Source of the DNA: a virus
Reading direction: 5' to 3' (one strand)
Length of the DNA: 64,000 nt
IMG/VR virus record: IMGVR_UViG_3300020048_005080
The translations under genes and the position numbers were made by a program. Numbering within the stretch: position 1 is the stretch's first letter; each line of letters starts with the position of its first letter. This document shows, in pieces, positions 3,648-43,194 of this stretch. Under the pieces are notes generated by a model. That model had not been told where the DNA came from. It saw only the letters and a program-made list of their open reading frames with translations, and ran no database searches.

Positions 3648-4220
3648 AAGAATTTAGTTTCTGGATGTACTTCATGGGATAATGACAAAAGATGCAGAAA
3701 GTTTAATTCACTTTCTGAGCATGACGAATTTATAGTTAGATCGATAAATTCCACTGTGGGATACGAAGACACGCTTTACCATTTAGGAGATTGGAGTTTT
3801 GGAGGATTCGATAATATTAAAAAATTCAGAGACAGAATAAACTGTGCTAATGTACATTTGATCTTAGGAAATCATGATCATCACTTAGAGAATAATAGAG
3901 AAGATTGTCGTGATTATTTTTCCAGCGTGCAACATTATTTAGAAATTGAGATTGATGGCATTCGAATAATCATGAGTCATTGGCCAATGAAGGTATGGAA
4001 TAAGTACCATAAAGGATCTTGGCAATTGCATGGGCATTGTCACAATAATCTACAGCCAGATGAATGGTGGACTTCTTCGAAAGTAAACGAAAGAAGAAGA
4101 ACAATGGATATTGGGTTGGACACAAACTCTCTTAAACCTTGGTCTTTTGCTGAGCTTAAGAAGATAATGAATAAGCTAGATAAATTCGGAAAAGTTTTAG
4201 ATCATCACGAGAAAGACTAA
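3612..4220 (+). CDS. calcineurin-like metallophosphoesterase
   Basis: FTSDTHYGH, LGDWSFGG and LGNHDHH are the metallophosphoesterase motifs. Confidence 0.75.
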   Translation: MIYFTSDTHYGHKNLVSGCTSWDNDKRCRKFNSLSEHDEFIVRSINSTVGYEDTLYHLGDWSFGGFDNIKKFRDRINCANVHLILGNHDHHLENNREDCRDYFSSVQHYLEIEIDGIRIIMSHWPMKVWNKYHKGSWQLHGHCHNNLQPDEWWTSSKVNERRRTMDIGLDTNSLKPWSFAELKKIMNKLDKFGKVLDHHEKD

Positions 4221-5293
4221 ACCGTAGGTATATTAATCTGATTGATTAGATCTTCCGGTTTTTTATTCTCTATATCTTTCCAAACGTCAGATATAGTAAT
4301 TCCTATATCTTCAGTCATAATTAGTGCTTTATCTGTCCATTCAGATTTAACAGCTAAATTTATTGCCTGTATATTTTCTGTGCATGCAACAGACCCTAAA
4401 TCTAGGGATTCCTTAATAACATCAGATGCCTTATTTATAAGTTCTAAACAGCAATTATCGTGATTTTTTTTCTGTCCGCTAATATGAAAATGGAAAATGT
4501 TGTCAAAGTAGTTTTTTGATTCCTGACCATTTATTCTTGTCAATAAAGCATTTCCGATTTCTCTATAAGTTATAATCTTTAGACCTTCTAATTCGCTTGA
4601 ATTATTTGCTTTTAATCCGCTTATAAGCTCCGAATATATTTCAATAAGTGTATTTATGGCTTGTATCTCTTTAGCTCCACTTACATCATTTAAAGTGCAT
4701 AATACTGGATCTTTACTAAATATAGAATGATCTATATTTCCTATTTTTATTCCAAAAAATTCAGGAAGATAATCAATTACTATATTTAATGCTTCTTGAG
4801 GAATTCTAGTTGCAGTATTTTTCCAGATATGATTAGCAATATGTGTTAATGGTGTAATTGCTTGGTATTTACTAAAAAATGGTGGATCTATTCTAAATTC
4901 ACCTCTATAGGGCAATCCATTAACAGCATCTATTCCGCCATTAACAACTATTTCACCTGATCCAAAACTTCTTGGAATATTAAATTTACCCTCAGAATCA
5001 CTAATTGCTGTTTTTATTAGTCCTCCGCTATAGGCATATATAAAGTTCACCCTAGCTCCAACTAAAGCAGCATCGGAAACTACTCCCATATGATTTGAAA
5101 TAATATCTAAAGCTCCATCATAAGCTCCTTCTTCCCCGTCCTCATTTTTTTTACTAAATGGGTCTTTATATTTCTTTTTCTCCTCAGCTTCATTTAGTAG
5201 TCTTTGGGTCTCTTTTTCTCTCTGCCATATTTTATACTTTATACGCAGTTGATCCTCCGAAAGACCTGGATATTTTGCTCTGAAACTTATCAT
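4217..5293 (-). CDS. hypothetical protein
   Basis: 358-aa ORF at the 3' end of the long minus operon. Confidence 0.55.
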   Translation of the reverse strand: MISFRAKYPGLSEDQLRIKYKIWQREKETQRLLNEAEEKKKYKDPFSKKNEDGEEGAYDGALDIISNHMGVVSDAALVGARVNFIYAYSGGLIKTAISDSEGKFNIPRSFGSGEIVVNGGIDAVNGLPYRGEFRIDPPFFSKYQAITPLTHIANHIWKNTATRIPQEALNIVIDYLPEFFGIKIGNIDHSIFSKDPVLCTLNDVSGAKEIQAINTLIEIYSELISGLKANNSSELEGLKIITYREIGNALLTRINGQESKNYFDNIFHFHISGQKKNHDNCCLELINKASDVIKESLDLGSVACTENIQAINLAVKSEWTDKALIMTEDIGITISDVWKDIENKKPEDLINQINIPTV

Positions 5294-5311
5294 CGGATTA
5301 TATATCCGAAT

Positions 5312-6322
5312 TTAGATTTTAGAGCTACCAAAGCCAATTCCTGATTTCTTTTTACCCCCTTTGATTCTTGGCTTATCTGATAGAGCATTAAGAGTAGCTA
5401 AAGATTCTTTAAAATCTTTGCCCATAACTATTACAGAAATAACTAATTCTTTTAAATGTGATAATGACATATCTTCACTCGAATCTAACCATTCTTCTAG
5501 ATTGATGTTTTTAAGATCCTCATCAGATAATTTATTCTTAATATATGATTCTCTAATCGCTCTAGATGGCATTTGAACCTCATATCTTCTATCAAATCTA
5601 GAAGGTCTGTTTGTAATACGCTCTTGCAGTTTTTCTGGGTAATTTGTAGTTGCAATATAAACTACATTCTCAATTTGTTTAACACCGTCTAGAATGTTAA
5701 GCAATTTTGTAGTGGAATATCTGTCCTCGCCTGCTAATGAATCAATATCTTCAAGTATTACAATAAGAGGTCTTTCAGGTTCAATTGTTCTGATTGTTGG
5801 AACAAATTCAACAAATGCTTTAAAATCTTCATCCTCTTTGATATTAATAACAATCCCATTCTCTTCTTCAATTAGGTTCTTAACGCAAAGTTGGATAATT
5901 CCTGATTTACCACACCCAGGATCTCCATAAAGTAAAATACCCCTTTTGTGTACGAAGTTATACTCTTTATATGTTTCTCTTTTTCTCCAGAATATTTTTA
6001 TGTCACTTAGAATGCTTTCGATCTCAGGGGAAGGCAGTTCATAAAGTTCATCAATATTTAAAGCCTGTTTAGCAATAACCCAAGTCTGTAATGAGCTATT
6101 CCATTTCATTTCATAAAGCCCAGATGGAACATGCGGAATTGAAACATACGAGGGTGCAAATTGGTCATTCTGTAATACAGACCATTGTGTGTGTGTATGC
6201 GTGTCTATCGATTCTAAATCATCGTCAAAATATCCTTCTCTCATTTTTCTAGTTATATTAATTAAATTGTTTATTCTTTCCGTAACATCTGCCTTAGTTC
6301 TTGCAGTCTTTTTATTTTTCAT
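5312..6322 (-). CDS. AAA+ ATPase
   Basis: Walker A is LLYGDPGCGKSG, Walker B is IVILEDID, sensor-1 is ATTNYP, and the Arg finger region is RPSRFDRR. Confidence 0.8.
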   Translation of the reverse strand: MKNKKTARTKADVTERINNLINITRKMREGYFDDDLESIDTHTHTQWSVLQNDQFAPSYVSIPHVPSGLYEMKWNSSLQTWVIAKQALNIDELYELPSPEIESILSDIKIFWRKRETYKEYNFVHKRGILLYGDPGCGKSGIIQLCVKNLIEEENGIVINIKEDEDFKAFVEFVPTIRTIEPERPLIVILEDIDSLAGEDRYSTTKLLNILDGVKQIENVVYIATTNYPEKLQERITNRPSRFDRRYEVQMPSRAIRESYIKNKLSDEDLKNINLEEWLDSSEDMSLSHLKELVISVIVMGKDFKESLATLNALSDKPRIKGGKKKSGIGFGSSKI

Positions 6323-7334
6323 TCAATAGGAATTTATTACTGATAACTTTAAAAGATATCTTTCTATCAATGCTTCTTATAACAACACCCTCTCTGTCAA
6401 AATTAGGATTATGATAAGATTTTCCGTCTGCATAAGATAAAAGATCCTCTATTGTATCGGGTAAAGTAAATTCTGTTTCAATTTTGGGTACTGTATCAAG
6501 ACCTAATCCATGAATAGTATTAACAAATTCTGTTAACCCCACATATTCACGTGTGTCTATATTAAACACATTAAAGAACTTAACCGTCTGTCCTAAGATT
6601 TTATAAGGATTACCTTGTATACCTTCTCCGATTAGCTCTCCTTGAAAACACACATTATATTCTAAAGATTTCATTTTGTTCTCTAGATCTAAATTTCTTG
6701 CAACTTTCCAGAATGAATTTCCTTCAGTTTCTAAAAGCTCTAAATTTCTAGAACAAACACCAAACTCTCCATCTTTGTAATAGTATGTAGCAGAACTTCC
6801 GTCTAGTTTTTCTGTCACATAGAATTTATTGTCTTCTACTTTCCATCCTTCAAATACTGATGAAAGATTTTGAATTCTTTCTTCATCAGTCTTTGGAATG
6901 AATCCAGGAAATAGTCCTTTAGCTACTCCAGATAATTCTGCAGGCATAGGTGGTTCGTATTTAATGATTCCCAAAATTTCAGATACATCAGATCCTTCTT
7001 CAAATTCTACTATAAAATTCTTATATCTCATAAGAACATTTATTGGAATAATTAGACCTTGAGAAACCTGTCCTCTAAGTTTAATTGTTCTCAATCTGAA
7101 TCCTTCTGAGCCATCTGCCATTTTTTTGTATGAAGACTTTCTAAGGAATTCAAATTCTTCTTTAATTGGAAGGAATGAATCGATCTCGCAGTAGATTACA
7201 TAATCACCCTCTTTGTGTTCTACGTTTTTCCCTACTACCACCTTCCATCCGTTTACAATTGCCAATTCAATAGCATCCGCACCTTCAATTGGAAGGATTT
7301 CTTTAATTTTCTGAATCGTTGCTAGTTTTCTCAT
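6312..7334 (-). CDS. ATP-dependent RNA ligase (KxDG nucleotidyltransferase, DRB0094/TIGR02306-like)
   Basis: The N-terminus MRKLATIQKIKEILPIEGADAIELA is typical of this ligase family. The KxDG motif is TEKLDGSS. Confidence 0.75.
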   Translation of the reverse strand: MRKLATIQKIKEILPIEGADAIELAIVNGWKVVVGKNVEHKEGDYVIYCEIDSFLPIKEEFEFLRKSSYKKMADGSEGFRLRTIKLRGQVSQGLIIPINVLMRYKNFIVEFEEGSDVSEILGIIKYEPPMPAELSGVAKGLFPGFIPKTDEERIQNLSSVFEGWKVEDNKFYVTEKLDGSSATYYYKDGEFGVCSRNLELLETEGNSFWKVARNLDLENKMKSLEYNVCFQGELIGEGIQGNPYKILGQTVKFFNVFNIDTREYVGLTEFVNTIHGLGLDTVPKIETEFTLPDTIEDLLSYADGKSYHNPNFDREGVVIRSIDRKISFKVISNKFLLNEK

Positions 7335-7914
7335 CTATTAACTTATTTTGTTTATATGCGTCTCTCAATATCTCGTCTAGCGACAATTTATTGTTTTCTT
7401 TCTTGTAGATCACTATAGTTACCTGACAATCTCTAAGTTCCTTCTGTATAAGATATTTAATATGATCCCAATCACCTCCTGCAAGTCCTGCTCCGATCAT
7501 AGGAAGTCCTATACGTTTACCTTGAAACACCATATTCATTTTTCTTAGACATAATGTCAAAGCTTCATAATCAATAGGTCTTAAAACACCATCAGAGTGA
7601 TTTCTTCCGTAGTTGTATTGTGTATAGGCATTAACAACAGTTAATTCTGGTTCATTGCGATTGTTCTTTGCATCTTCCAAAGACCATATTGCATTTTCAC
7701 CTAATACAAATGTTTCATGGTCAATATTACCTAATTTGTTAATATCAGAACCAATAAGTTCCATTTCAAATTTATCACATCCAAAAGCCTTAGCCATCTG
7801 GGGAGCAATACCTGCTCCCATAGTTGAATGACAATTGCATCCGTGTGCAATCACATCAAATATGCCTTGCTTAGCATATTCAATTAGATCCCCTTTTATC
7901 TCTTGGTATCTCAT
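7303..7914 (-). CDS. macro domain (ADP-ribose binding/processing) protein
   Basis: GDLIEY...DVIAHGCNCHSTMGAGIAPQMAKAFG is a macro-domain glycine-rich loop. Confidence 0.7.
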   Translation of the reverse strand: MRYQEIKGDLIEYAKQGIFDVIAHGCNCHSTMGAGIAPQMAKAFGCDKFEMELIGSDINKLGNIDHETFVLGENAIWSLEDAKNNRNEPELTVVNAYTQYNYGRNHSDGVLRPIDYEALTLCLRKMNMVFQGKRIGLPMIGAGLAGGDWDHIKYLIQKELRDCQVTIVIYKKENNKLSLDEILRDAYKQNKLIDEKTSNDSEN

Positions 7915-8087
7915 GTCTCCTTAATATAAAATTCTCTATTAGGTGAATCATAATCCCATGACATATCTCTAACGAGAGCTGAGTAAACCCAGTTAGCAAT
8001 CATTTCTGTTGGACATTGACACACCAGCTCATCCCTTGTAATATCTCCTGAATCTGGATCAATATCTTTATATCTAATTTCTGTCAT
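7911..8087 (-). CDS. small hypothetical protein (58 aa, below the track threshold)
   Basis: ORF MTEIRYKDIDPDSGDITRDELVCQCP... fills the gap between the two neighbours with ATGA overlaps. Confidence 0.25.
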   Translation of the reverse strand: MTEIRYKDIDPDSGDITRDELVCQCPTEMIANWVYSALVRDMSWDYDSPNREFYIKET

Positions 8088-8362
8088 GAATTAATTCCTC
8101 TAACCTCATTAATAATTTTACCTTCTTCCTTAGGTTTATCTTCTTCTTTGATTTCTACAAAATCTTCAATAGATTCTATCATTGTATTTACTATAGGATA
8201 ATAGCATAGAATTTTTCTTCTAATTATTTCTTCATTCGGATTATTTTCATCATTATAGAAATAATAATACCCTGAGCCAGAGCTGAAATCATCACAGATT
8301 ATTTCTCTTTTGTAATCACCTGGTGGTGCAATTATAATGAGTTTAAATTTTTGCTTAGCCAT
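8084..8362 (-). CDS. hypothetical protein
   Basis: 92-aa ORF. Confidence 0.4.
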   Translation of the reverse strand: MAKQKFKLIIIAPPGDYKREIICDDFSSGSGYYYFYNDENNPNEEIIRRKILCYYPIVNTMIESIEDFVEIKEEDKPKEEGKIINEVRGINS

Positions 8363-8366
8363 AATT

Positions 8367-8627
8367 TTAGCCTAATTTTATCGTGGAAAATGTTAACCAA
8401 TCGCCTTCTCTTTGGTCACTGTTCCATTTTACATCTTCCCATCCAGCTTTAAGATATCTTTCCTTAATTATTTGAAAATGAGAAAAAGACATCCCTGAAG
8501 GAACTCCTGTATTCACTGAAGAATTTGGTGCTACCTTTTTATTAGCTAATTCATGATCTATTTTATTTTCGAAAGTATCAAGCTCTGCTAGAAAGTTAGC
8601 ATTTAATTGATTCGGTCCTATTGCCAT
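8367..8627 (-). CDS. hypothetical protein
   Basis: 86-aa ORF. Confidence 0.4.
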   Translation of the reverse strand: MAIGPNQLNANFLAELDTFENKIDHELANKKVAPNSSVNTGVPSGMSFSHFQIIKERYLKAGWEDVKWNSDQREGDWLTFSTIKLG

Positions 8628-8628
8628 A

Positions 8629-8964
8629 TTATTTTTCTTTGATTGTTTGTTCTGATTTAACTCTGTACCCTTTTTCTTCTTCTAAAGATTCTCTAAATCT
8701 TTTTAAAAATTCTTTAGCGTCTTTTTCATTGTCGTAATATCTATAGGCATACATTTCGTATCCTATCATATAACAGCAATTCATCCAGATTAAAGCAAAG
8801 GGAACTCTTTGTTGAATGTAATATCTTTTCTCCCCGTTTTGATAAATTACTTTTCTGATCCTGTGTCCCCATGAATATTTGGAAATATCAGACATATGGA
8901 AAAAAATTATACAAAATAACGGAAGTAATATAACTAATACTGATGCTATAGTAAGAAATTTCAT
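8629..8964 (-). CDS. hypothetical membrane protein
   Basis: N-terminal TM helix LTIASVLVILLPLFCIIFF. Confidence 0.4.
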   Translation of the reverse strand: MKFLTIASVLVILLPLFCIIFFHMSDISKYSWGHRIRKVIYQNGEKRYYIQQRVPFALIWMNCCYMIGYEMYAYRYYDNEKDAKEFLKRFRESLEEEKGYRVKSEQTIKEK

Positions 8965-8979
8965 TGATAGTGGTTTAAA

Positions 8980-9900
8980 TTATAATACTTCTAATTGCCA
9001 TAAAAATTTCGAATCAACCGTGTAATCTGAATGTGAATCACATTCTATAACGGAAAAACTGTTTGTTGAATATACATTTTCAAAATACTTAGATAACTCC
9101 AAAAATGAATTGCTGAATATTCCATGAGTCACACAAAGGAATACTTTATTATCTGGAAATTTCTCTTTAATTGCTTTTGAAATCTCTATGAAGGTTCTTC
9201 CTCCATCACAAATATCATCAAAGATTACAAATGTCTTATTAGCATGTGTCATATCCAATGGAACATTTGTACTTACAATTTTACCTGTAGTAATATCTCT
9301 ATGTTTGCTAGCTACAATAACATCGGTTATTCCGTTATGTTCTGCAACATCATAGATTTTCTTTAATGCACCAGCATCAGGAGAAATTATAGCAATATCT
9401 TTCTTGTCAATTGAATGTTCGAAAAATATTCTAGAAATACATTTTTTAGAAAACTCAACGTTAGAGTCTTTTTTAAAATTTATAATACATGATTCTAAAG
9501 CATCTGAATGAGGATCTAACACGATAACTTCTGAATATCCTTGAGCATTTATAATTGGAGAAATTACATCTTTAATATAATTAAATCCACCATCAGAGAA
9601 TTTTCTGTCAGATCTTGCACCAATGAAATAAGGAACGTATAATGAAATATCAGAAACTCCTGCTTCTTTTAATGCTGCAGTTGCACATAAGAGAATCTCG
9701 ACATCTTTAAAATTTCTTAATCTCTTATAAATACGTACGGGGTAACATTTATTAGTACCATATTCATCTTCTTTTTCTTTGTACCAAATTAATGAATCAG
9801 GATCAGTTAGTGTCAAAGATTGTTGTCCGTCAGGAAACTTAGAAATCTTATAAGATATTCCTGTTTGTTCTGGTGTTTCTAGATTAATTATTTTTCTCAT
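8980..9900 (-). CDS. ribose-phosphate pyrophosphokinase (PRPP synthetase) family protein (Prs or ADPR-PP synthetase-like)
   Basis: PRPP-binding loop VIFDDICDGGRTF, Prs-like length, and the N-terminal domain DGQQSLTLTD. Confidence 0.8.
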   Translation of the reverse strand: MRKIINLETPEQTGISYKISKFPDGQQSLTLTDPDSLIWYKEKEDEYGTNKCYPVRIYKRLRNFKDVEILLCATAALKEAGVSDISLYVPYFIGARSDRKFSDGGFNYIKDVISPIINAQGYSEVIVLDPHSDALESCIINFKKDSNVEFSKKCISRIFFEHSIDKKDIAIISPDAGALKKIYDVAEHNGITDVIVASKHRDITTGKIVSTNVPLDMTHANKTFVIFDDICDGGRTFIEISKAIKEKFPDNKVFLCVTHGIFSNSFLELSKYFENVYSTNSFSVIECDSHSDYTVDSKFLWQLEVL

Positions 9901-10480
9901 TCTCTTGTGTTTTTAATTGTTTTTCAATATAATCTGCAATAATAATTACCGCTTCGTCTTGTATCCACCAATGTTCATTACCATTTATAGTAACAGAGAA
10001 ATCCCCGTCTGTTGGATCAAGAACCACTTCATTAATAATGACAACTGGATTTTGCTTTCTTTTCTTTTCTTTATCAAATTTCATAAAAATCTCAGAAGCT
10101 AAACCTACATAATCTTTTCTTCTGATCCTTTCCTTGTAGGCATAATAATAAGTGCTCTCTCCAGTAGGACTGTGAATCACAACCACTTCTAAATCACTCC
10201 AGTCTTTTACCAGCTTCCAATTTTTGTGAATGTAACTTTTTGCTATATTAGCAATGTGTCCCATAGCAGCTAGATGTTTCTGATATTCATCCTTGAATTC
10301 TTTATCAACATAAAATATTGATTCCTTATAACCTTCTTCGAATTCTTCCTCTGTCATGAAGCACGGACTCATTATAGATCCGTGTATAAGATTAGGATGG
10401 TCTTTTTTTCTCGCCATATTCTTTTCTGATTTTATCAACTTCTTCAAAATATCGATCTGCATCATCGTGCCACACATCAA
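9884..10480 (-). CDS. hypothetical protein
   Basis: 198-aa ORF. I checked for NMNAT and 2H motifs and could not confirm either. Confidence 0.5.
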   Translation of the reverse strand: MMCGTMMQIDILKKLIKSEKNMARKKDHPNLIHGSIMSPCFMTEEEFEEGYKESIFYVDKEFKDEYQKHLAAMGHIANIAKSYIHKNWKLVKDWSDLEVVVIHSPTGESTYYYAYKERIRRKDYVGLASEIFMKFDKEKKRKQNPVVIINEVVLDPTDGDFSVTINGNEHWWIQDEAVIIIADYIEKQLKTQENEKNN

Positions 10481-10775
10481 CAGTTCCGTAATAAACTACA
10501 TCTTCTACTTCCTCGATTTTTTTAATTTCATTAGAAACCCATTCTTTATCCGATTCGTTTTTTAGACTATCAAAAAAGAATTGGTATTTCTCTTGATCAC
10601 CTCCGCCAGTACAATCCATTCCCTTAGATATAACAATATCGATTATCTTATCTACAATTTTTCCTTCAGGATCAGGACCACAGTAAACATCAATACAAAA
10701 TCCATATTGTCTGAATTCTCCGACTCTCTTTTTCTTCCTAATTCTTCTGCTGTATTTGCTCCTTTGGAACTCCAT
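10392..10775 (-). CDS. hypothetical protein (first gene of the long minus operon)
   Basis: It lies directly downstream of the conserved promoter cassette at 10790-10840. Confidence 0.45.
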   Translation of the reverse strand: MEFQRSKYSRRIRKKKRVGEFRQYGFCIDVYCGPDPEGKIVDKIIDIVISKGMDCTGGGDQEKYQFFFDSLKNESDKEWVSNEIKKIEEVEDVVYYGTVDVWHDDADRYFEEVDKIRKEYGEKKRPS

Positions 10776-10789
10776 TCTCTTAATTTTAG

Positions 10790-10881
10790 GTAAAGATAGA
10801 AATTTCTTATTGATTAAAAAAACGTTTTAACGAAATTGGATAAATACTTTACTGAATTATAATATATAATGAAAGAATTCT
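10790..10881. promoter_or_regulatory. divergent promoter pair sharing a palindromic TTAAAAAAACGTTTTAA core
   Basis: The minus-oriented cassette AAACGTTTTTTTAATCAATAAGAAATTTCTATCTTTAC drives 10775. The + side, ACGTTTTAACGAAATTGGATAAATACTTTAC, drives 10882. Confidence 0.55.
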
Positions 10882-11283
10882 ATGGAACATTTATTGGAAT
10901 ATGAGAAATTCTCAGGTGATATTTTAAACGAAGCACAGATTGTATATGACGGAGTAAAAATAAGTGCAGCTGGCGACGGAACAGGTAGACTACTTCTAAC
11001 CTACGGTTCAACAAAAAGTTACTATAAGATTAAAGCTAAGGTAAAAAAATTACTAGTTGTTTGGTATGATGGACCAATAGCTGTAGTAAATGCTTGGGAA
11101 AATGAACAAAAAGAATGCTGGGTTAAAGATAATACTGGTAAGCTATTTAAACTTAATAAAGAAACTTTAAAAACTATCGCGGCAAAAGCAAAGGCAAAAG
11201 CTCCATCCATAGAATTAGCAGGAACCGGGGAAATTAAAGGAGTAGAAGGAACATATAATGCAACATTAACCAAAGTTGCTTAA
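10882..11283 (+). CDS. hypothetical protein (N-terminal MEHLLEYEKF tag)
   Basis: 133-aa ORF. Its N-terminus matches the recurring tag. Confidence 0.5.
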   Translation: MEHLLEYEKFSGDILNEAQIVYDGVKISAAGDGTGRLLLTYGSTKSYYKIKAKVKKLLVVWYDGPIAVVNAWENEQKECWVKDNTGKLFKLNKETLKTIAAKAKAKAPSIELAGTGEIKGVEGTYNATLTKVA

Positions 11284-11292
11284 TTTATATTT

Positions 11293-11877
11293 ATGAAATA
11301 CCCAAAAAAATACTTATCGACCAATCCCAATGTCATGAAAAGGGAGATCAAAAAACATGGAGACAAAGAGGATTCTGATTCTTCTGCTTATGGTCCATGG
11401 GATGCTGATTATAAATCACGCAAAGCAGGCAAGGGCAAAGCGGTAAAAACCAAAACAAGTAAGTACACTAAGAAATATAAAGAAATGTTTGGGGAGAATC
11501 TAATGACAGATCCCTATCAATTCATGAATGTCTTAGAAGAACTCGAGAATGAGTTTATCGATTTATTAGAATCTTTGTCAGAAAATGAGATATCGGAAAT
11601 TGAGGGATTTTTAAATGAGGGGGTAACTTCTGCTGGTAGTCCAGTAAAAAAAGCTCTAAAGAATAAATCAGACAAGACTGGATTTCCTCAGGGTATATTA
11701 ACACAAGTATGGAAAAGGGGATATGCAGCTTGGAAAAATGGACATATTCCAGGAACAACGCCTCAACAATGGGCAATGGCTAGAGTTAATTCTTTTGTAA
11801 CTGGTGGTAAAACAACAAAAATGGGAGATAAAGCTTTATATAAACAAGCTAAAGCTAATAGAAAAGACAAGAAATAA
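11293..11877 (+). CDS. hypothetical protein
   Basis: 194-aa ORF with a basic N-terminus. Confidence 0.5.
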   Translation: MKYPKKYLSTNPNVMKREIKKHGDKEDSDSSAYGPWDADYKSRKAGKGKAVKTKTSKYTKKYKEMFGENLMTDPYQFMNVLEELENEFIDLLESLSENEISEIEGFLNEGVTSAGSPVKKALKNKSDKTGFPQGILTQVWKRGYAAWKNGHIPGTTPQQWAMARVNSFVTGGKTTKMGDKALYKQAKANRKDKK

Positions 11878-13939: not shown

Positions 13940-14347
13940 ATGGAAAAAATAGCAAAACAGGTTATTGTGATCCGAAAGGATCTTAACATGAGAAAAGGAA
14001 AGATGGTAGCACAAGGTGCTCACGCATCTATGGCAGCAGTACTTGATCAAATGGTTATAAGAAATTGTCCTACAGGAATTCAGGAAAAAACTCTCTCACT
14101 AGAAAGTGGAACACCGATGGAATCTTGGATTAACGGTCTATTCACTAAAGTTTGTGTTTCTGTAGATTCTGAATCGGAATTAATGGAGATATATGAAAAG
14201 GCTAAAGGAGCAGGACTTATTGCATCTATAATCACTGATGCTGGCCTTACTGAATTTGCTGGAGTTCCAACAAAAACATGTATTGCAATTGGACCAAATT
14301 GGTCAGAAGAAGTTAACGAAATAACAGGACATTTAAAACTATTATAA
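13940..14347 (+). CDS. peptidyl-tRNA hydrolase, PTH2 family
   Basis: KQVIVIRKDLNMRKGKMVAQGAHAS and the C-terminus GLIASIITDAGLTEFAGVPTKTCIAIGP...TGHLKLL closely parallel archaeal/eukaryotic PTH2. Confidence 0.8.
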   Translation: MEKIAKQVIVIRKDLNMRKGKMVAQGAHASMAAVLDQMVIRNCPTGIQEKTLSLESGTPMESWINGLFTKVCVSVDSESELMEIYEKAKGAGLIASIITDAGLTEFAGVPTKTCIAIGPNWSEEVNEITGHLKLL

Positions 14348-15534
14348 TGTTACAAGAATTTTTAGATCTTATAGAAAGCAAGTCTCCAGGAGCACAGCCT
14401 CTTCTTATTGTTAAGAGAGGATCGCAGGCTTATGGTACTGCCATTCCCACATCAGATATTGATTATGCTGGAGTTTATATCCAACATATTGATAATATAT
14501 TGGGCTATGGCTACAAAGAGCAGATCAATGATGATAAGAATGACACTGTTTTTTATGAGATTAAAAGATTCTTAGATCTTGTATCTACAAATAACCCGAC
14601 TATTTTAGAGCTCTTAAACACACCAGAAGACTGCATTCTATATAAACACCCATTGATAGGTGAGATACTTCAGCACAGAGACAAATTCATCACTAAAAAG
14701 TGTTCTAATTCATTTGCTGGGTATGCTATTCAACAGATTAAGAAGGCAAAAGGACAGGACAAGAAACAAAACTGGGAGAAAGACAAAGTAACACGTAAAG
14801 ACGTTCTAGACTTTTGCTATGTTATAAAAGGAGAAAAATCTATGCCTTGGAAAGTTTGGAGCGAAGCCCGTTACGAAGAGAAATTTGTTGGTGTTGTAAA
14901 TTTACCTAATGCAAGGGATGTTTATGCTGTTTATTATGATACTGATTCTCACCTTTGCTTTTCTGAATCAATTCCGGAAGGTTCTAGAAATGTATATAAA
15001 AATAATCGAAAAGAATTAGGACTTGTTATGGGTCTAGGCTATAAAGGTCTAGTTAAGTCGGGTGAAGGTGCTAACGTTGCTGAATCCAACCAATTGAGAC
15101 TTTCAAGTATACCCAAAGGAGAAACCCCTATATGTAATATCATATACAATAAAGATGGTTACACTGCACATTGTAAAGATTATAGAGAATACCAAGAATG
15201 GTTAGATAATCGAAATGAACAGAGATGGACTGATGTTAAGACCCACGATCAGAAGATTGATGGTAAAAATATGATGCACTGTCGTAGACTCCTAGAAATG
15301 GCTAAAGAAATTGCTGAAGGTAAAGGCATTCTTGTAAGAAGAGAAAATGCTCAGGAGCTATTAGCAATTAGAAGAGGAGAGGTTGATCTACAAAGTCTAA
15401 TTGATAGAGCTGAAAATGACATCGTAGAAATTGATAGATTATTTAAAGAATCAGATCTTCCAGAATCGGTTGATCTTGGCTTTATTAATGATTTACTTGT
15501 TTCAGTAAGAAAAGAATTTTACGGATTAGCATAA
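14347..15534 (+). CDS. Pol-beta superfamily nucleotidyltransferase (GS-x9-DxD)
   Basis: RGSQAYGTAIPTSDIDYAGVY is the minimal nucleotidyltransferase signature. I cannot assign the subfamily, which could be RNA-repair associated, OAS-like or CD-NTase-like. Confidence 0.55.
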   Translation: MLQEFLDLIESKSPGAQPLLIVKRGSQAYGTAIPTSDIDYAGVYIQHIDNILGYGYKEQINDDKNDTVFYEIKRFLDLVSTNNPTILELLNTPEDCILYKHPLIGEILQHRDKFITKKCSNSFAGYAIQQIKKAKGQDKKQNWEKDKVTRKDVLDFCYVIKGEKSMPWKVWSEARYEEKFVGVVNLPNARDVYAVYYDTDSHLCFSESIPEGSRNVYKNNRKELGLVMGLGYKGLVKSGEGANVAESNQLRLSSIPKGETPICNIIYNKDGYTAHCKDYREYQEWLDNRNEQRWTDVKTHDQKIDGKNMMHCRRLLEMAKEIAEGKGILVRRENAQELLAIRRGEVDLQSLIDRAENDIVEIDRLFKESDLPESVDLGFINDLLVSVRKEFYGLA

Positions 15535-18815: not shown

Positions 18816-19130
18816 ATGAGTAAAAAAGTTTATCTTATCAAAGGTGCATTAGTCGATACGGAAGGAAAAAAAGAATGGATAGAATCAATAACAGCTTCTA
18901 AAGAAAGAGCAAATAAAATAAAAGCTCAATTGAATCGTTCATTAGAGGATGAGATTATCGTATCAAAAGAAATATTTGATAAGTACACTAAAGAGGGTTC
19001 AGAAGAATTAGAATGGGGTAAAATGGAATTTCACACTGATAATATGACAGATGACGAATTCGAAAAGTTCTGTATTTATAGATACGGAACTAAGATGCCA
19101 TTTAAAATAGAAGTATCAGATCTTGTCTAG
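18816..19130 (+). CDS. hypothetical protein
   Basis: 104-aa ORF. Confidence 0.45.
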   Translation: MSKKVYLIKGALVDTEGKKEWIESITASKERANKIKAQLNRSLEDEIIVSKEIFDKYTKEGSEELEWGKMEFHTDNMTDDEFEKFCIYRYGTKMPFKIEVSDLV

Positions 19131-20002
19131 ATACTTCCTTTTAAATTTCTTCTACTAACAATAGCTTTTATTCTCCTTTCAGCTTTATTAGATACACCTC
19201 TAGCCCATTCAGCGGTTCTTTCAAACGATTCCCCAATTTGTCTAAAAGATTGGGGTTCTTTATTTTCATCTAATCCGTATTTAAGTATAGTGATTTGTCT
19301 TTCCATTGGTTTGAGCTCGGATAATATACTCATTATAGATTTTTTTAAATCCTCATTTATTATATTACTGTCTGTGCTTGTTTCAGATTCTATCCAATTG
19401 ATAGGACTAAAAGAATCATCATCACTAGCATTTGTGCTACTTTCTAAAGGAATCGATCTTGGTGTATTTTTAATAGTTTCTATAGCTGATGCTGATAATT
19501 GAATATCCGTGTTCTCTTCTATTATTAATAACATTTCATCAATCGAAGGTTCTCTTCCGTGATAAGAAATAAAGCTTTCTTCCAGAGTTTGGTATTGTCT
19601 TAATTGTTGTGTGATATTAGTAGGGATTCTAACAGATCTTGAATTATTGTTCAGATACAGAAATATATTTTTTCTGATATGCCATACAGCATAACTGATA
19701 AATTTAAAACCTGTAGACGGATCGAAAGTTTCTATAGCTTCTACTAGACCTTTATTACCTTCAGATATTAGATCCTCTAAAGGATTTTGTTGTGAAGCAT
19801 AAGCTTTAGCAACAGATACAACAAATCTTAGATTTGATTTTAATATAAGCTCTTTAGCTTTAAGATCTCCATTTTTTGATTTAACTGCTAATTCAGCTTC
19901 TTTCTCAGGACTTAATATTTCATACTTACTTATTTCAGTGAAATATCTAGATATATTATCGTTAGTATTTGTAATTCTATTGATAATCTTAAATTCCCTC
20001 AT
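19127..20002 (-). CDS. RNA polymerase sigma-70 family factor (divergent)
   Basis: Region 2 is LRFVVSVAKAYASQQNPLEDLISEGNKGLVEAIETFDPSTGFKFISYAVWHIRKNI. Region 4 is the helix-turn-helix SFRQIGESFERTAEWARGVSNKAERRIK. Confidence 0.75.
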   Translation of the reverse strand: MREFKIINRITNTNDNISRYFTEISKYEILSPEKEAELAVKSKNGDLKAKELILKSNLRFVVSVAKAYASQQNPLEDLISEGNKGLVEAIETFDPSTGFKFISYAVWHIRKNIFLYLNNNSRSVRIPTNITQQLRQYQTLEESFISYHGREPSIDEMLLIIEENTDIQLSASAIETIKNTPRSIPLESSTNASDDDSFSPINWIESETSTDSNIINEDLKKSIMSILSELKPMERQITILKYGLDENKEPQSFRQIGESFERTAEWARGVSNKAERRIKAIVSRRNLKGSI

Positions 20003-20277: not shown

Positions 20278-20339
20278 ATATATTAAATCATTTTTTTTAT
20301 CAATAAGAAATTTCTAATATTGCAAGGTAATTAAAAAAT
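20278..20339 (+). promoter_or_regulatory. promoter cassette
   Basis: AAATCATTTTTTTTATCAATAAGAAATTTCTAATATTGCAAGG. The segment TCAATAAGAAATTTCTA is identical to the 10775 promoter. Confidence 0.55.
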
Positions 20340-20651
20340 ATGGAAACTTCTAAAAGCGATTACAGATTCAGATTCATAAGCGATGTTCTAGTTATAGAGG
20401 ATCTAAATCTAGGAAGAATGTCAGTAACAAATAATGCTGAAGATGTTATTTCAGAAATAAGAACAAGTACCGACAGAAGATTGACTGAACATTTTATAAT
20501 CTATAAAGATAGCGATGGAGTTTGGGATCAAATGATTCCTTCATATTCTTTAACAGGTTGCTCTGAAGTTTTTTTTAAACATATCGGAGAAACTAATCTT
20601 GAAGATGCTATTATAAAACTAAGAGAATCATTAACTTTAAAACACCAATAA
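20340..20651 (+). CDS. hypothetical protein
   Basis: 103-aa ORF. Confidence 0.45.
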   Translation: METSKSDYRFRFISDVLVIEDLNLGRMSVTNNAEDVISEIRTSTDRRLTEHFIIYKDSDGVWDQMIPSYSLTGCSEVFFKHIGETNLEDAIIKLRESLTLKHQ

Positions 20652-20657
20652 ATAAAT

Positions 20658-22184
20658 ATGATAAATCCAGCTCTGCTAACAGACGGGTATAAAACTGGGC
20701 ATCACCAGCAATATCCCAAGGGAACGACATTAGTCTATTCCAATTTTACACCAAGAAGCAACAAGTACGCACCTAAGGGATGTGATATGGTAGTTTCTTT
20801 CGGACAACAATTAATCATGAAGCAAATTCACGAGAGTTTTAGAAAAGATTTCTTTGATCAACCAAAAGAAGCAGTATGTAAAGAGATTAGAGAGGAGCTC
20901 TCTTTATACCTAGGTGTAGATTATGACACAAGTCATTTCGAAGCTCTTCATGATCTTGGACATCTTCCTATTAAAGTTAAAGCATTACCAGAAGGCACAT
21001 TGGTTCCTATTAAAGTTCCAGTTTTAACTATCTACAATACAAACCCAGATTTTTACTGGATAACAAATTATTTGGAAACCCTAGTTTCTAATCTTCTTTG
21101 GAAACCAATAACCTCAGCAACTATTGCATTCCAATACAAAAGAGTACTTACAGAATGGGCTCTTAAAACAAATCAAGAAGCTAAAGAATTTGTTTACTGG
21201 CAAGGACACGATTTCTCTATGAGAGGTTTAGATTCTATTGATGCTGTAGTTTCATCTGGACTTGGTCACTTAACATCATTCTACGGTACGGATTCTCTTC
21301 CAGCAATTTACGGAGCACGTAAATTCTACGGAGCAGAAGGATTTGTTGGAGGCTCAGTTCCTGCAACAGAACACTCAGTTATGTGTGCAGGTGGTAAAGA
21401 AGACGAGATTGATACGTTCAGAAGATTACTTGAAACATATCCTAAAGGAATTCTTTCTGTAGTATCTGATACATGGGATTTATGGAAAGTGTGTACAGAA
21501 CACGTAGTCACTTTGAAAGATGAAATTCTTGCTCGTGATGGTAAATTAGTTATACGTCCTGACTCAGGAGATCCGGTTGATATTCTTTGTGGGTGGGGTG
21601 GCTTTGATCCTGAAGGTGAAAGCGAAGAAGCTAAAAATGAGCCACAAAATAAAGGAGTAATTGAATTACTTTGGGACGTATTTGGCGGAACAGTCAATGC
21701 TCAAGGTTACAAAGTACTTGACCCACACATCGGAGCTATCTATGGGGATTCAATCACAATCGACAGAGCAAATGAAATCTGCGCAAGACTAGAAGCAAAA
21801 GGATTCGCATCAACAAATGTTGTATTAGGGGTTGGTTCTTTCACTTATCAATATAACACTCGTGACACATTTGGTTTTGCAATGAAAGCAACGTATGTCG
21901 AAGTAAATAAACCAAAATTCGAAGGCGATTTCAATCCAGAAGGACGTGAGATCTTTAAAGATCCTATCACAGATGATGGAACAAAAAAATCTGCAACGGG
22001 ATTATTAAGTGTTCACAGTCATGATGGCGAATTGGTTTTAATTGACAAATGTACATGGGAAGGTGAAGAGGTTAGTTTATTACAAACAATTTACCAAGAC
22101 GGTATTTTTCACAATCCAGTTACTCTAAATGAAATCAGAGAGAAATTAGATAAAGCTATACATTTACAATTCGAATTAGCTTAA
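20658..22184 (+). CDS. nadV: nicotinamide phosphoribosyltransferase (NAMPT family)
   Basis: N-terminus MINPALLTDGYKTGHHQQYPKGT. The 508-aa length and colinear conservation are typical of NadV/NAMPT. Confidence 0.85.
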   Translation: MINPALLTDGYKTGHHQQYPKGTTLVYSNFTPRSNKYAPKGCDMVVSFGQQLIMKQIHESFRKDFFDQPKEAVCKEIREELSLYLGVDYDTSHFEALHDLGHLPIKVKALPEGTLVPIKVPVLTIYNTNPDFYWITNYLETLVSNLLWKPITSATIAFQYKRVLTEWALKTNQEAKEFVYWQGHDFSMRGLDSIDAVVSSGLGHLTSFYGTDSLPAIYGARKFYGAEGFVGGSVPATEHSVMCAGGKEDEIDTFRRLLETYPKGILSVVSDTWDLWKVCTEHVVTLKDEILARDGKLVIRPDSGDPVDILCGWGGFDPEGESEEAKNEPQNKGVIELLWDVFGGTVNAQGYKVLDPHIGAIYGDSITIDRANEICARLEAKGFASTNVVLGVGSFTYQYNTRDTFGFAMKATYVEVNKPKFEGDFNPEGREIFKDPITDDGTKKSATGLLSVHSHDGELVLIDKCTWEGEEVSLLQTIYQDGIFHNPVTLNEIREKLDKAIHLQFELA

Positions 22185-22269: not shown

Positions 22270-24162
22270 ATGTTTATGAATTTAATTTTAGATTACTGGT
22301 GGACCATCATCCCAGTACTTGCGTTGGTCTTTTACAAGTTCACGCTCCGTTTCTTCTTCGGTATGGTAATTATACCAGAAGATAAAATTGGTTTAGTAAC
22401 CAAAAAATTCGTTCTCTTTGGAGACAACAAATCTTTACCAGACGGTAAGATTATTGCTCTAAATGGAGAACCAGGGTATCAAGCAGATACATTAGCACCA
22501 GGTTTATACTGGGCTTATTGGGTTTGGCAATACTCAATTGATCAAGCAGATTTAATAATCGTTGAGAAAGGAAAATTAGGTCTTATCACTGCAAAAGATG
22601 GTATGTCACTACCTACTGGTTCTATCTTAGCTCGCCACGTAAAATGTGACGATTATCAAGACACACGTGCATTCTTAACTAACGGGGGTCAAAGAGGTAA
22701 ACAAGTTGGATATCTTAACAACGGGGTTTATCGAATCAATACACAACTATTTGAAGTGTTTCAAGCAGATATCACTTACATTGAAGATGGAATGGTAGGT
22801 ATTATAACAACACTTGATGGTAAGCCACTAGATCAAAATGCTATTGCAGGATCACCAGTTAATGACCATAATAACTTCCAAGATTTTGATAGATTCTTAG
22901 ATCATGGAGGACAAAGAGGTTTACAAACTCAAGTTATCCAAGCAGGTTCTTATACATTAAACCCTTGGGCAGTTGAGGTAGAGAAGAAAGAAATGACTTC
23001 TATTCCTATTGGTCACGTAGGTGTTGTTATATCATACGTTGGAGAAGAAGGAATTGATCAAACTGGAGACACTTTCAAACACGGTAACATCGTTAAGAAA
23101 GGACAAAAAGGAGTTTGGATTACACCTTTAGATCCAGGTAAATACGCGGTTAACCCGTACACTCAAAAAATCGAGATCGTACCTACAACAAACTTAGTAC
23201 TTAACTGGGCAAATGCTAGAAGTGAATCACACAACTTAGATAAGAACTTAAGTACTATCACAGTGCGTTCTAAAGACGGTTTCCCTTTCAATTTGGACGT
23301 ATCTCAAATTATCCATATTCCTTCTACTGAAGCACCTAAGGTAATTGCTCGATTTGGTTCTATGTCAAACTTAGTTTCTCAGGTACTTGAGCCAACAATT
23401 GGTAACTACTTCCGTAACTCTGCACAAGATTCAGATGTTATCTCTTTCTTAAGTACACGTCAGACAAGACAAAATGCTGCTAAAGATTCAATCTCTAAAG
23501 TATTAGAGGAATACAACGTACATGCAGTAGACACATTGATTGGAGATATCACACCTCCAGCAGAACTTATGAAAACTCTTACTGATCGTAAGATCGCACA
23601 AGAGGAGGAAATAACTTTCGAAACTCAGCGTAAAGCTCAAGACCAACGTAAGACTTTAGAGTCTGCTAAGTCATTAGCTGATATGCAAGGTAAAATGGTT
23701 GCTGCACAGCAATCAGTAGAAATCTCACAACGTGAAGCAGAAGCATCTGTTAAGAGATCAGAAGGTGAAGCTCAGGCAATGAAACTTAAAGCTGGTGCTC
23801 AGGCAGAAGCTAAAAAGATGATGGCTGAAGCAGATGCTGCTCAGATCAAATTAACGGGAGACGCAGAGGCAAGTAAGATTGAAGCAATAGGTAAAGCAAC
23901 TGCTGAAGCTTATGATCTTCAGGTTAAGGCAATGGGATCTGATAACTTTGGTAAATTGAAAGTTACCGAAATGATTGGGACAAATGGAATTAAAATTATT
24001 CCGGAAATACTTATCTCTGGCAATGACGGAGGTAACGGGCCAATCTCAGGACTTCTCGGAATGGAGTTATTAAAACAGATTACAGAAAAAAATAAATCTG
24101 AAGTTTTAACAGAAACTTCTAGTAAAAAACGAAACAATTCAGGAGAAGGTGAAGTAAAATAA
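22270..24162 (+). CDS. flotillin / SPFH (band 7) domain membrane protein
   Basis: N-terminal TM, an SPFH body, and the C-terminal Ala/Glu-rich coiled coil AQAEAKKMMAEADAAQIKLTGDAEASKIEAIGKATAEAY typical of flotillins/YqiK. Confidence 0.8.
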   Translation: MFMNLILDYWWTIIPVLALVFYKFTLRFFFGMVIIPEDKIGLVTKKFVLFGDNKSLPDGKIIALNGEPGYQADTLAPGLYWAYWVWQYSIDQADLIIVEKGKLGLITAKDGMSLPTGSILARHVKCDDYQDTRAFLTNGGQRGKQVGYLNNGVYRINTQLFEVFQADITYIEDGMVGIITTLDGKPLDQNAIAGSPVNDHNNFQDFDRFLDHGGQRGLQTQVIQAGSYTLNPWAVEVEKKEMTSIPIGHVGVVISYVGEEGIDQTGDTFKHGNIVKKGQKGVWITPLDPGKYAVNPYTQKIEIVPTTNLVLNWANARSESHNLDKNLSTITVRSKDGFPFNLDVSQIIHIPSTEAPKVIARFGSMSNLVSQVLEPTIGNYFRNSAQDSDVISFLSTRQTRQNAAKDSISKVLEEYNVHAVDTLIGDITPPAELMKTLTDRKIAQEEEITFETQRKAQDQRKTLESAKSLADMQGKMVAAQQSVEISQREAEASVKRSEGEAQAMKLKAGAQAEAKKMMAEADAAQIKLTGDAEASKIEAIGKATAEAYDLQVKAMGSDNFGKLKVTEMIGTNGIKIIPEILISGNDGGNGPISGLLGMELLKQITEKNKSEVLTETSSKKRNNSGEGEVK

Positions 24163-24164
24163 GT

Positions 24165-24653
24165 ATGAAAGTACAAATTTTAAAACCTACTGACGGTGAC
24201 CCTGTGCTTAACAAGGTCACCGTTTTTCTTGCTGGTTCTATAGAAATGGGAGCAGCAGAGGATTGGCAGACTATTGTTTCTAACAAGATGGAAGAATTGG
24301 AAATGCCTATTACTATATTTAATCCAAGAAGAGATTCATGGGATTCATCTTGGGAACAGAGAGAATCTAATCCACAATTTAGCCAACAGGTTAACTGGGA
24401 GATGGATAGACTTAATGAATGTGATATTATATTTATGTACTTCTCCCCTGGTACAAAATCCCCTATCTCTCTATTAGAATTAGGTCTTCATGCAGATTCA
24501 AGAAAAATGATCGTGTGTTGTCCTGATGAATTTTGGAGAAAGGGCAACGTTGAAATTGTTTGCTCTAGACACAATATACCTTTACATGACAATCTAGAAC
24601 ACGCTATGATGTGTTTGTCAGCTGTAACATCATCAGAATTAATTAATAAATAA
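24165..24653 (+). CDS. 2'-deoxynucleoside 5'-phosphate N-hydrolase / nucleoside deoxyribosyltransferase-like (DNPH1/Rcl fold)
   Basis: VFLAGSIEMGAAEDWQ, FNPRRDSWDS, ECDIIF, and SLLELG. It is a paralog of 1919..2275. Confidence 0.6.
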   Translation: MKVQILKPTDGDPVLNKVTVFLAGSIEMGAAEDWQTIVSNKMEELEMPITIFNPRRDSWDSSWEQRESNPQFSQQVNWEMDRLNECDIIFMYFSPGTKSPISLLELGLHADSRKMIVCCPDEFWRKGNVEIVCSRHNIPLHDNLEHAMMCLSAVTSSELINK

Positions 24654-27184: not shown

Positions 27185-27572
27185 TTCTTATCACCGATCC
27201 CTGTCCGTGCATAACTTGAATAATGTAAGATCCCATATAATAAGCTTCTCCCGTGAACATATTCAGATATTTTTCATCTGTACATTCTTTGCAATATTTC
27301 TTTGCGTATCCTAAAGCTATCCATAGAAGAGATTCTCTAGGTTCATATCCTAAAGAATATTCTCTTCTTACGTATTCATCAGAATCGTATTTTTCTATTA
27401 ACTTCTCAAGATAAGCGTCAATATCGGACTCTGCTAATTTTTTGAATTTTTCGATCCATCTATCTTTACGCTCTTCCTCTCTTTTTATTTTGTTTCCAAA
27501 TTCCTCAATGGATTTCTTACCCTCTTCGGTATCTAAAAATTCTCTCAATTTTTCTACCATGCTTTTACTCAT
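27168..27572 (-). CDS. hypothetical protein
   Basis: 134-aa ORF. Confidence 0.5.
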   Translation of the reverse strand: MSKSMVEKLREFLDTEEGKKSIEEFGNKIKREEERKDRWIEKFKKLAESDIDAYLEKLIEKYDSDEYVRREYSLGYEPRESLLWIALGYAKKYCKECTDEKYLNMFTGEAYYMGSYIIQVMHGQGSVIRIDKML

Positions 27573-42870: not shown

Positions 42871-43194
42871 CTATTTATAGTAGATCTTCTCTGGATATTT
42901 ACCAAATACAAATTCAGTGACTGAACACAGCCAAATTGTCGAAGGACCATGCCAAGCATCATTGTTGTAATAACCCTCACTAGACTCGTTATGATCATAG
43001 GAAAGTATCTTAGAATCTTCGAATGGTTCGTCTGCAAAGGTAACAAAACAATAGTCGGATTCGCCAGATAATATCTCCAAAAGAATATCTGCTCCTAACA
43101 CCATTTCAAGTTCATCTTTTTCCCCTTCCCATTCTGGAAGATCCACGAACCATCTATTATCTTCTTCCTTGTAAAATTTGAATCTTCTTATCAT
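42871..43194 (-). CDS. hypothetical protein
   Basis: 107-aa ORF. Confidence 0.45.
   Translation of the reverse strand: MIRRFKFYKEEDNRWFVDLPEWEGEKDELEMVLGADILLEILSGESDYCFVTFADEPFEDSKILSYDHNESSEGYYNNDAWHGPSTIWLCSVTEFVFGKYPEKIYYK

Follow-up and report, generated by a model that had tools for sequence, protein, structure and literature searches.

A probable dispersed phage NAD+ reconstitution pathway of the NARP1-AP type, with a macro-domain phosphatase homologue and a shared upstream element

The window analysed here is the whole 64,000-nucleotide stretch of the IMG/VR virus record IMGVR_UViG_3300020048_005080, and it carries in two separate clusters the genes for a Prs-like protein, a macro-domain protein and a NAMPT-family protein (Table 1). 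The Prs-like and NAMPT-family genes, on opposite strands, are separated by 10,758 bp and about 20 called genes, while the macro gene shares the strand of the Prs-like gene and is separated from it by four small open reading frames (ORFs), with junctions of -32 to +15 nt. An original prediction had proposed that these genes form a split nicotinamide adenine dinucleotide (NAD+) pathway, and every ORF it named was found in place. The G+C content across the window is 32.9%. We found no cultured close relative of the window, the best matches being a Flavobacterium phage gene and a Cellulophaga phage macro protein, and comparing 25 kb with cultured phages by megablast gave short matches only (a Flavobacterium phage thymidylate synthase and a crAss-like NAMPT). 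Several metagenome contigs (ENA, JGI and Logan) carry the same or nearly the same sequence. We take the source to be an uncultured large phage that probably infects Bacteroidota.

In NAD+ reconstitution pathway 1 (NARP1) the Prs homologue Adps pyrophosphorylates ADP-ribose (ADPR), and the NAMPT homologue Namat joins the product with nicotinamide to give NAD+; 97% of the Adps-clade genes have a Namat gene within 10 genes (Osterman et al. 2024, 10.1101/2024.02.11.579819). NAD+ reconstitution pathway 1 with associated phosphatase (NARP1-AP) adds Adpp, a Poa1p-like macro phosphatase that converts ADPR-1''-phosphate (ADPR-1''-P), the product of aRES defence, into ADPR, and Adpp is found in about 15% of the NARP1 phages (Osterman et al. 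2026, bioRxiv 10.64898/2026.01.28.702374).

Family scans placed the Prs-like protein in PHROG 619 ('ribose-phosphate pyrophosphokinase', E 5.6e-59), with a Pfam Pribosyltran score of 27.2 bits. Using MAFFT we aligned it with three Prs and with seven Namat-adjacent phage Adps, those of ICP1, Athena (Gary-like), wV8, PD06, GuuelaD, Skywalker and a Kayvirus. The signatures described for ICP1 Adps are a remodelled PP loop, Lys185, the residues F18/R87/F92 and the loss of alpha11-alpha12; its PP loop (C215-S220) binds the ATP donor and is conserved across Adps (Liu et al. 2026, PMC13586617). The PP loop of the window protein reads D228-DICDGGRTF-F237, with the same letters in the Adps of wV8, PD06 and GuuelaD, each of them Namat-adjacent, compared with DDICDGAASF in ICP1 Adps and DDM(I/V)DT(G/A)GTL in canonical Prs. 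DDICDGGRTF loops are found in Namat-adjacent Adps of Felixounavirus, Justusliebigvirus and mycobacteriophage origin. Residues F18, R87, F92, H121, D161 and K185 of ICP1 Adps are all kept (F22, R96, F101, H131, D175 and K199 in the window protein), as are D212 and D213 (D228 and D229); these ADPR-contact and catalytic residues are mostly conserved in Prs too, the discriminating one being F92 in ICP1 and F101 in the window. Where Prs have the motifs DLHA.QIQGFF, KRR and THP, the window protein has the Adps forms DPHSD, K.RD..TG and THG. By alignment, the tail beyond the TNS motif counts 25 residues, compared with about 18 in ICP1 and about 40 in E. coli, and the LLAEAIRRI..E.S.S..F motif is missing from it.

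The scores obtained for this protein follow those of Adps. Against the TIGR01251 model it reached 106.9 bits (cut-off 113), close to the Adps of ICP1 (98.0) and Athena (98.5) and far from E. coli Prs (422.7), and it falls under all the NCBIfam Prs cut-offs, as validated Adps do. BLASTP gave 93-119 bits against Adps of Gram-negative-phage origin and 47-65 bits against 16 proteobacterial Prs, and solved Prs from bacteria, archaea and human scored at most 49.7 bits. In a neighbour-joining tree with 200 bootstraps, the phylogenetic check suggested by the original prediction, the window clade (100%) groups with the seven Namat-adjacent Adps at a poorly supported position among them (30%), and Prs is split off at 100%, a split that is weakly informative given an outgroup of proteobacterial class I Prs only. 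A contig scan for a wider outgroup returned only gamma- and betaproteobacterial Prs, and the outgroup stayed narrow. By sequence, the protein is an Adps and not a canonical Prs.

The NAMPT-family protein matched Pfam NAPRTase (6e-37), NAMPT_N and PHROG 448 (1e-190). Its closest solved structures, 9W5X and 9W5W, are both SPbetaL1 Namat (545 bits, E 1e-162), compared with 231 bits for Xanthomonas Nampt and about 220 bits (at most 224) for other Nampt. The signatures of Namat are the adenine clamp, the SCH motif and the SCL (Lan et al. 2026, PMC12774641). The SCH signature of the window protein, G393-SFTYQYNTR-D403, is the same as that of SPbetaL1 and matches exactly the published motif GSX-phi-X-phi-X-phi-TRD, in which X is aromatic (PMC12774641), while the Xanthomonas Nampt has GMGGALLQKVDRD in its place. 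The third SCL residue may be Arg, Lys or Tyr, and with Lys or Tyr the following residue stacks (PMC12774641); K36-Y37 of the window protein align with R40-V41 of SPbetaL1, an arrangement of the Bas63 type. In the alignment to 9W5X the catalytic core is complete, with F186, R189, D212, H239, R300 and D302 corresponding to F189, R192, D215, the catalytic His, R306 and D308 of SPbetaL1. Identity amounts to 44-54% with Namat-type phage proteins and 28-34% with NAMPT homologues of T4-like phages. Judged on these signatures, the gene is a Namat.

The original prediction had left two options for this enzyme pair, NAD+ salvage and the rebuilding of NAD+ after a NADase defence. In ordinary salvage the Prs-like protein would make phosphoribosyl pyrophosphate (PRPP), the NAMPT homologue would turn it into nicotinamide mononucleotide (NMN) and an NMN adenylyltransferase (NMNAT) from host or phage would finish NAD+. 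The membership of both proteins in the Prs and NAMPT superfamilies and the non-adjacent genes are compatible with such a route, NCBIfam names the Namat ORF 'nicotinate phosphoribosyltransferase' above cut-off (543 bits), and Namat enzymes can produce NMN from PRPP in vitro (10.1101/2024.02.11.579819). We nevertheless regard it as very improbable, since all the signatures examined speak against it. The Prs-like protein has the Adps versions instead of the DT(G/A)GT loop, DLHA.QIQGFF and KRR, and its TIGR01251 score is 107 bits against 423 for E. coli Prs; the NAMPT homologue carries the adenine-clamp signature, missing from Nampt; and the orthologues are tightly clustered with the macro/Adpp gene. 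For missing domains we consulted precomputed Pfam lists, those of near-identical contigs for the stretch between about 10.7 kb and the window end and that of the relative L006 for the left part; these lists hold no Nmnat, CTP_transf_like, Nudix, NadR or PnuC domain. The pairing of Adps with Namat, of the NARP1 type and not the Prs/NadV salvage type, points instead to the second option, in which NAD+ would be rebuilt after NADase attack.

The macro protein belongs to PHROG 335 ('phosphatase', 2e-47), its Pfam Macro match being sub-threshold (18.1 bits, cut-off 22). It aligns over its full length with gp176 of Vibrio phage Athena (33% identity, E 3e-19), a protein that shares 98.1% identity with the Adpp characterised by experiment in Vibrio phage Gary and is encoded between the Athena Adps and Namat genes. 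Direct matches to Poa1p structures are weak (6LFU, E 0.0024). The loops HxCNC, MGxGIAP and GxPxIGxGLAGG are invariant among the window protein, the Gary type and the operon-embedded orthologues. On this evidence the macro protein is a homologue of Adpp, the Poa1p-like phosphatase that defines NARP1-AP; the original prediction recognised the macro gene, and its description of the product as an ADPR binder falls short of this assignment.

Table 1. Genes and sequence elements of the window discussed in the text
Feature	Coordinates	Strand	Size	Assignment and remarks
RNA ligase	6312..7334	-		PHA02142-type; Pfam PHA02142 OB-fold 1e-36, RNA_ligase 1e-22
Adpp-like macro	7303..7914	-	203 aa	Macro-domain protein, predicted ADPR-1''-phosphate phosphatase
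o58	7911..8087	-		Small protein; recurs between Adps and macro or Ndt gene
o92	8084..8362	-		Intervening small ORF, no module link
o86	8367..8627	-		Small conserved protein; recurs inside NARP1 clusters
o111	8629..8964	-		Intervening small ORF, no module link
Adps	8980..9900	-	306 aa	PRPS-like, predicted ADPR-pyrophosphate synthetase
p177	9884..10417	-	177 aa	Conserved, function unassigned; mechanical ORF 9884..10480, 198 aa
YggL-like	10392..10775			First gene of the Adps-macro cluster
Shared element, copy 1	10797..10830	-		21 nt before the YggL-like start codon
Shared element, copy 2	20283..20316	+		23 nt before the o103 start codon
o103	20340..20651			First gene of the Namat-Band7-Ndt cluster
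Namat	20658..22184	+	508 aa	Predicted nicotinamide ADP-ribose transferase
SPFH/Band_7 protein	22270..24162	+	630 aa	Between Namat and Ndt; Pfam Band_7 E 1e-26
Ndt	24165..24653	+	162 aa	PF15891, nucleoside 2-deoxyribosyltransferase-like; Pfam Nuc_deoxyri_tr2 E 4e-36
Other RNA-repair-type genes	13940..14347; 14347..15534; 27569..28303	+; +; -		PTH2 peptidyl-tRNA hydrolase, RlaP, PolyA_pol/CCA-type nucleotidyltransferase
Sigma-70-family genes	19127..20002; 58872..59738	-; -		
ABC transporter	29539..31136; 31193..32968	-; -		ATPase and permease, beside an OmpA-domain protein
Response-regulator receiver	40255..40686	-		Follows the GAF/PAS sensor
GAF/PAS sensor	40679..42814	-	711 aa	
DUF6717 gene	42871..43194	-		PF20475; far from the pathway genes
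Deoxyhypusine synthase-like	51981..52961	-		
AdoMet decarboxylase-like	54151..54522	-		

We compared the window with its relatives. A single-protein search of IMG/VR with the window Adps gave no close relatives, and an alignment-based search recovered relatives; the synteny sample consists of the best 80 of 230 IMG/VR relatives of this Adps (45-55% identity) with flanks of 10 kb, and in 45 of these 80 loci each flank measures 8 kb or more. Within 10 kb of Adps, Namat is found in 70 of the 80 loci, the PF15891 protein (Ndt) in 50, a macro orthologue in 41, o86 in 8, the SPFH protein in 7, p177 in 5 and o58 in 3, and 40 of the 45 well-flanked loci contain Namat. Namat is always on the Adps strand in the relatives, at gaps of 14-9348 bp, and the macro orthologues near Adps are 53-96% identical to that of the window. 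ORF maps show compact clusters in L021 (Adps 2812-3699, macro 3696-4211, Namat 4224-5714, then Ndt), L037 (Adps-macro-o157-Namat-SPFH-Ndt) and L033 (Adps-macro-o84-o149-Ndt-Namat), and two contigs of about 300 kb, L017 and L018, have the order Adps (52-56%)-Ndt-Namat, the L017 Ndt and Namat being 62% and 75% identical to those of the window. The window is the most dispersed case, a split copy of a normally compact same-strand cluster, which bears out the split pathway put forward in the original prediction. The left-hand arrangement of the window is also that of L006, whose Adps is 81% identical.

Two further relatives differ from the window around the Adps-macro site. In L081/L100 (IMGVR_UViG_3300009068_000049) the macro and RNA ligase proteins are 95-96% identical to those of the window and Adps only 52%, and in L078 (IMGVR_UViG_3300032219_002522) YggL-p177 runs straight to the RNA ligase, with the Adps-to-macro block missing. 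The locus is mosaic, a pattern suggesting cassette exchange or deletion at the Adps-macro site.

The same sample bears on whether the macro protein acts outside the NAD+ pathway, either in RNA repair together with the RNA ligase, in line with the tRNA-splicing role of Poa1p, or in reversing the ADP-ribosylation of DNA or protein, in an antitoxin role like that of DarG. The RNA ligase gene overlaps the macro 3' end by 32 nt, the RNA-repair-type genes PTH2, RlaP and PolyA_pol/CCA-type nucleotidyltransferase are nearby, and the C-terminal part of the macro protein gives weak matches to DarG models (NCBIfam 1.3e-7, PADLOC 1.6e-8). In addition, PHROG 335 occurs in 2421 phage records, compared with 1298 with an Adps-like gene, and includes T4-like phages in which no Prs-like match was seen; the family is wider than NARP1, so that membership in it is not decisive by itself and the link is given by synteny. 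In 41 of the 80 loci a macro orthologue (53-96%) lies no more than 10 kb from Adps, and in three maps it stands between Adps and Namat, while RNA ligase orthologues of at least 56% identity occur in 6 of the 80 and the other 14 ligase matches show 25-34%. Moreover, the DarG matches span the generic GLAGG loop only, and the Pfam lists covering the window contain no Tpt1/KptA 2'-phosphotransferase, the source of ADPR-1''-P in splicing. We consider a function of the macro protein outside the NAD+ pathway unlikely, and it would be compatible with a role inside it, the two not being mutually exclusive.

The strand shared by the Adps and macro genes and the tight junctions between them make their co-transcription plausible, and no terminator-like site above chance was found in the Adps-macro region. 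The operon of the Prs-like and macro genes assumed in the original prediction agrees with this layout, co-transcription itself being plausible only. Scans of positions 4000..11300 returned fewer sigma-70 promoter sites than shuffled sequences and intrinsic terminators at chance level, both scans being uninformative for a low-GC phage, probably of the Bacteroidota type.

The first genes of the two clusters, YggL-like and o103, are each preceded by a copy of the same sequence element. The copies are alike over 34 nt with 3 mismatches and include a perfect 10-bp palindrome, AGAAATTTCT, and the exact 18-mer ATCAATAAGAAATTTCTA occurs in the window only at these two places (10797..10814, minus strand, and 20299..20316, plus strand). 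The 11-mer core was observed twice against 0.41 expected, and at least two matches were found in 8 of 100 shuffles. The element is kept at the equivalent site of L006 (9546-9563) and was not found in the other 250-odd loci checked. It may represent a common promoter or operator that keeps the two halves of the pathway co-expressed. Of the two sigma-70-family genes in the window, the one located just upstream of the divergent intergenic region of the Namat cluster may encode a regulator acting on this element.

Another explanation of the split is a broken module, with halves no longer co-expressed after a rearrangement and at least one gene decaying. The window is indeed the sole case of Adps and Namat on opposite strands among the 70 scored relatives and has the largest gap, 5 of the 45 well-flanked relatives are without Namat within 10 kb, including L100 with the arrangement of the window, and the related contig L078 is without the Adps-to-macro block. 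We give this explanation almost no weight. Decay is unlikely because the ORFs are intact, with all catalytic residues conserved, and because the arrangement is conserved, being kept together with the upstream element in the 81% relative L006; several independent metagenome contigs carry exactly these proteins, and the 34-nt element stands ahead of both clusters.

Taken together, we judge it highly likely that the window encodes a dispersed NARP1-AP. The sequence data show the family assignments by signature, the synteny of the orthologues and the shared element; the enzyme activities, the co-regulation and any anti-defence phenotype are predictions. A host NADase defence would cut NAD+ into nicotinamide and ADPR or, in the case of the aRES type, into nicotinamide and ADPR-1''-P. 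Adpp would then strip the 1''-phosphate to yield ADPR, Adps would move the beta,gamma-pyrophosphate of ATP onto the terminal ribose of ADPR to form ADPR-pyrophosphate (ADPR-PP), and Namat would exchange the pyrophosphate for nicotinamide, restoring NAD+. As Namat would form NAD+ directly from ADPR-PP and nicotinamide, the pathway can do without an adenylyltransferase.

Several observations weigh against this interpretation. The window Namat lies beyond 10 genes of Adps, the distance of the published criterion, and the macro gene is not within 2 genes of a NARP1 gene, with four ORFs between it and Adps; in the relatives both distances are short enough (for the macro gene, for example, in L021, L033 and L037). 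Adps of Firmicute phages score no higher than Prs against the window protein (55-74 bits), and the C-terminal loss of alpha11-alpha12 is putative, being judged from the alignment. The shared element could be a leftover of the rearrangement.

Among the companion genes, the PF15891 gene is the most recurrent. In 40 of 57 Ndt loci no more than 6 kb separate it from Namat, in variable gene order, and examples in the relatives include L017 (10890-11372) and L018 (10893-11378) as well as L021, L033 and L037. The nearest solved structure, 4MCJ, is uncharacterised, and E105, in the invariant SLLELG, is the putative nucleophile in this superfamily of glycosidases. PF15891 was not found beside NARP1 in the two more distant cultured phages inspected (Erythrobacter phage L02 and Xanthomonas phage X1), the association being confined to uncultured phages of the clade to which the window is related; a literature search for NARP1 with deoxyribosyltransferase or PF15891 returned no paper linking them. 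Seven Adps-clade loci have an orthologue of the SPFH protein (75-83% identity), which in 6 of them comes directly after Namat, and SPFH orthologues are present in 8 of the 57 Ndt loci. A gene for DUF6717 (PF20475) comes directly after Namat in L017 (13041-13382) and L018 (13249-13599), and the window has such a gene as well, far from the pathway genes.

For p177, an alignment of 26 homologues places the start at M22 (10417). The family comprises 225 hypothetical proteins with no Pfam domain, and the window protein gave no family match in Pfam, PHROGs, NCBIfam or PADLOC and no fold match. It adjoins NARP1 genes in 8 of 21 IMG/VR loci, upstream of Adps or downstream of Namat, and is absent from L006. 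The original prediction had seen in its 198-aa reading frame the missing adenylyltransferase of the pathway, a proposal that we discard: NARP1 has no such step, the protein shows neither a family match nor a nucleotidyltransferase fold, and the closely related L006 does without it. Homologues of o58 (72-84% identity) are found in L006, L081, L069 and L061, where they stand between Adps and either the macro or the Ndt gene. All three proteins, p177, o86 and o58, recur in or next to NARP1 clusters of related uncultured phages, at varying places. Both p177 and o86 yielded confident AlphaFold models with no convincing fold match. The two remaining ORFs between Adps and the macro gene, o111 and o92, were found outside the window only in L006 and in none of the 80 Adps-clade loci.

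An accessory enzyme embedded in NARP1, RyDEP, converts 2'/3' cADPR into ADPR (Lopez Rivera et al. 2026, 10.64898/2026.05.28.727677). It offers a possible analogy for the PF15891 protein, whose fold is unrelated, and no RyR domain (PF02026) was found in ten scanned proteins around both clusters. Adpp and RyDEP were both discovered by association of this kind, which makes the PF15891 protein and the small proteins good candidates for new steps. We tentatively raise the possibility, which we hold to be less probable than its opposite, of an extended NARP1 regulon in which the element ties the two clusters together, PF15891 is a new enzyme and p177, o86 and o58 are further anti-defence accessories. 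By analogy with Adpp and RyDEP, PF15891 would in that case act as a glycosidase or transglycosylase feeding a NAD+-derived defence product, perhaps a cyclic isomer of ADPR or a different ribosyl conjugate, into ADPR or nicotinamide.

Other cargo of the window and its surroundings was recorded as well. Two NADAR-domain (PF08719) genes, from another family tied to ADP-ribose processing, are present on L177, the same phage contig (789-1283 and 3427-3933), about 0.9-4 kb past the right end of the window. The RNA-repair-type set, ligase included, may counter tRNA- or RNA-targeting defences. Unusual for a phage are the GAF/PAS sensor followed by a response-regulator receiver and the ABC transporter ATPase and permease beside an OmpA-domain protein. 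The AdoMet decarboxylase-like and deoxyhypusine synthase-like genes, less than 2.5 kb apart, possibly belong to polyamine metabolism.

NARP1 and NARP1-AP are recently described phage means of reversing NAD+-depleting immunity (Thoeris, DSR, SIR2-HerA, SEFIR and aRES). The window presents a known pathway in a new split arrangement, with the accessory genes as an interesting lead. The genes of a complete pathway can lie further apart than the distance rules for its detection allow, so that its prevalence in uncultured phages is probably underestimated, and the palindromic element before both halves offers a testable route to how such a scattered counter-defence pathway keeps its parts co-expressed. 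No description of the PF15891 companion, of the recurrent small proteins or of the upstream element was met in the searchable literature.

With canonical Prs (E. coli 7XMU and human PRPS1) the window Adps shares the fold family, FxDG(E/Q), RxDR, HS/HA, the catalytic Lys and the DD pair, but the identity is only 19-25%, CDGGRT stands in place of DT(G/A)GT and, by alignment, the C-terminal LLAEAIRRI...ES.S..F module is absent. Phages also rebuild NAD+ through NARP2 (Vibrio phage KVP40, Nampt with Nmnat/Nudix) and NARP3 (PnuC with a NadR-like protein; PMC13464706). NARP2 likewise employs a NAMPT-family enzyme, from which the window homologue differs by its Namat adenine clamp, and the latter shares only about 28-34% identity with the NAMPT homologues of Klebsiella, Enterobacter and Aeromonas T4-like phages, which rank lowest among its matches. 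The greater likeness is to the NARP1 of Bas63, SPbetaL1 and ICP1, with a PP loop of the Felixounavirus type, the ICP1 residues, the SCH of SPbetaL1 and an SCL of the Bas63 type. Those systems, unlike that of the window, are adjacent two-gene operons, and the window Adps is longer than that of ICP1 (306 versus 280 aa), with about 20 extra residues inserted in the N-terminal domain and a C-terminal tail that extends slightly further. The NARP1-AP of phage Gary combines the same three enzyme families, with which the macro gene between Adps and Namat in three mapped relatives of the window is in agreement. In contrast to Gary, the window genes do not form one operon, four ORFs separating Adps from the macro gene and Namat lying 10.8 kb off on the other strand; its Adps and Adpp are only about 32-33% identical to the Gary-type proteins, and it has in addition the companions PF15891 protein, SPFH protein, p177, o86 and o58.

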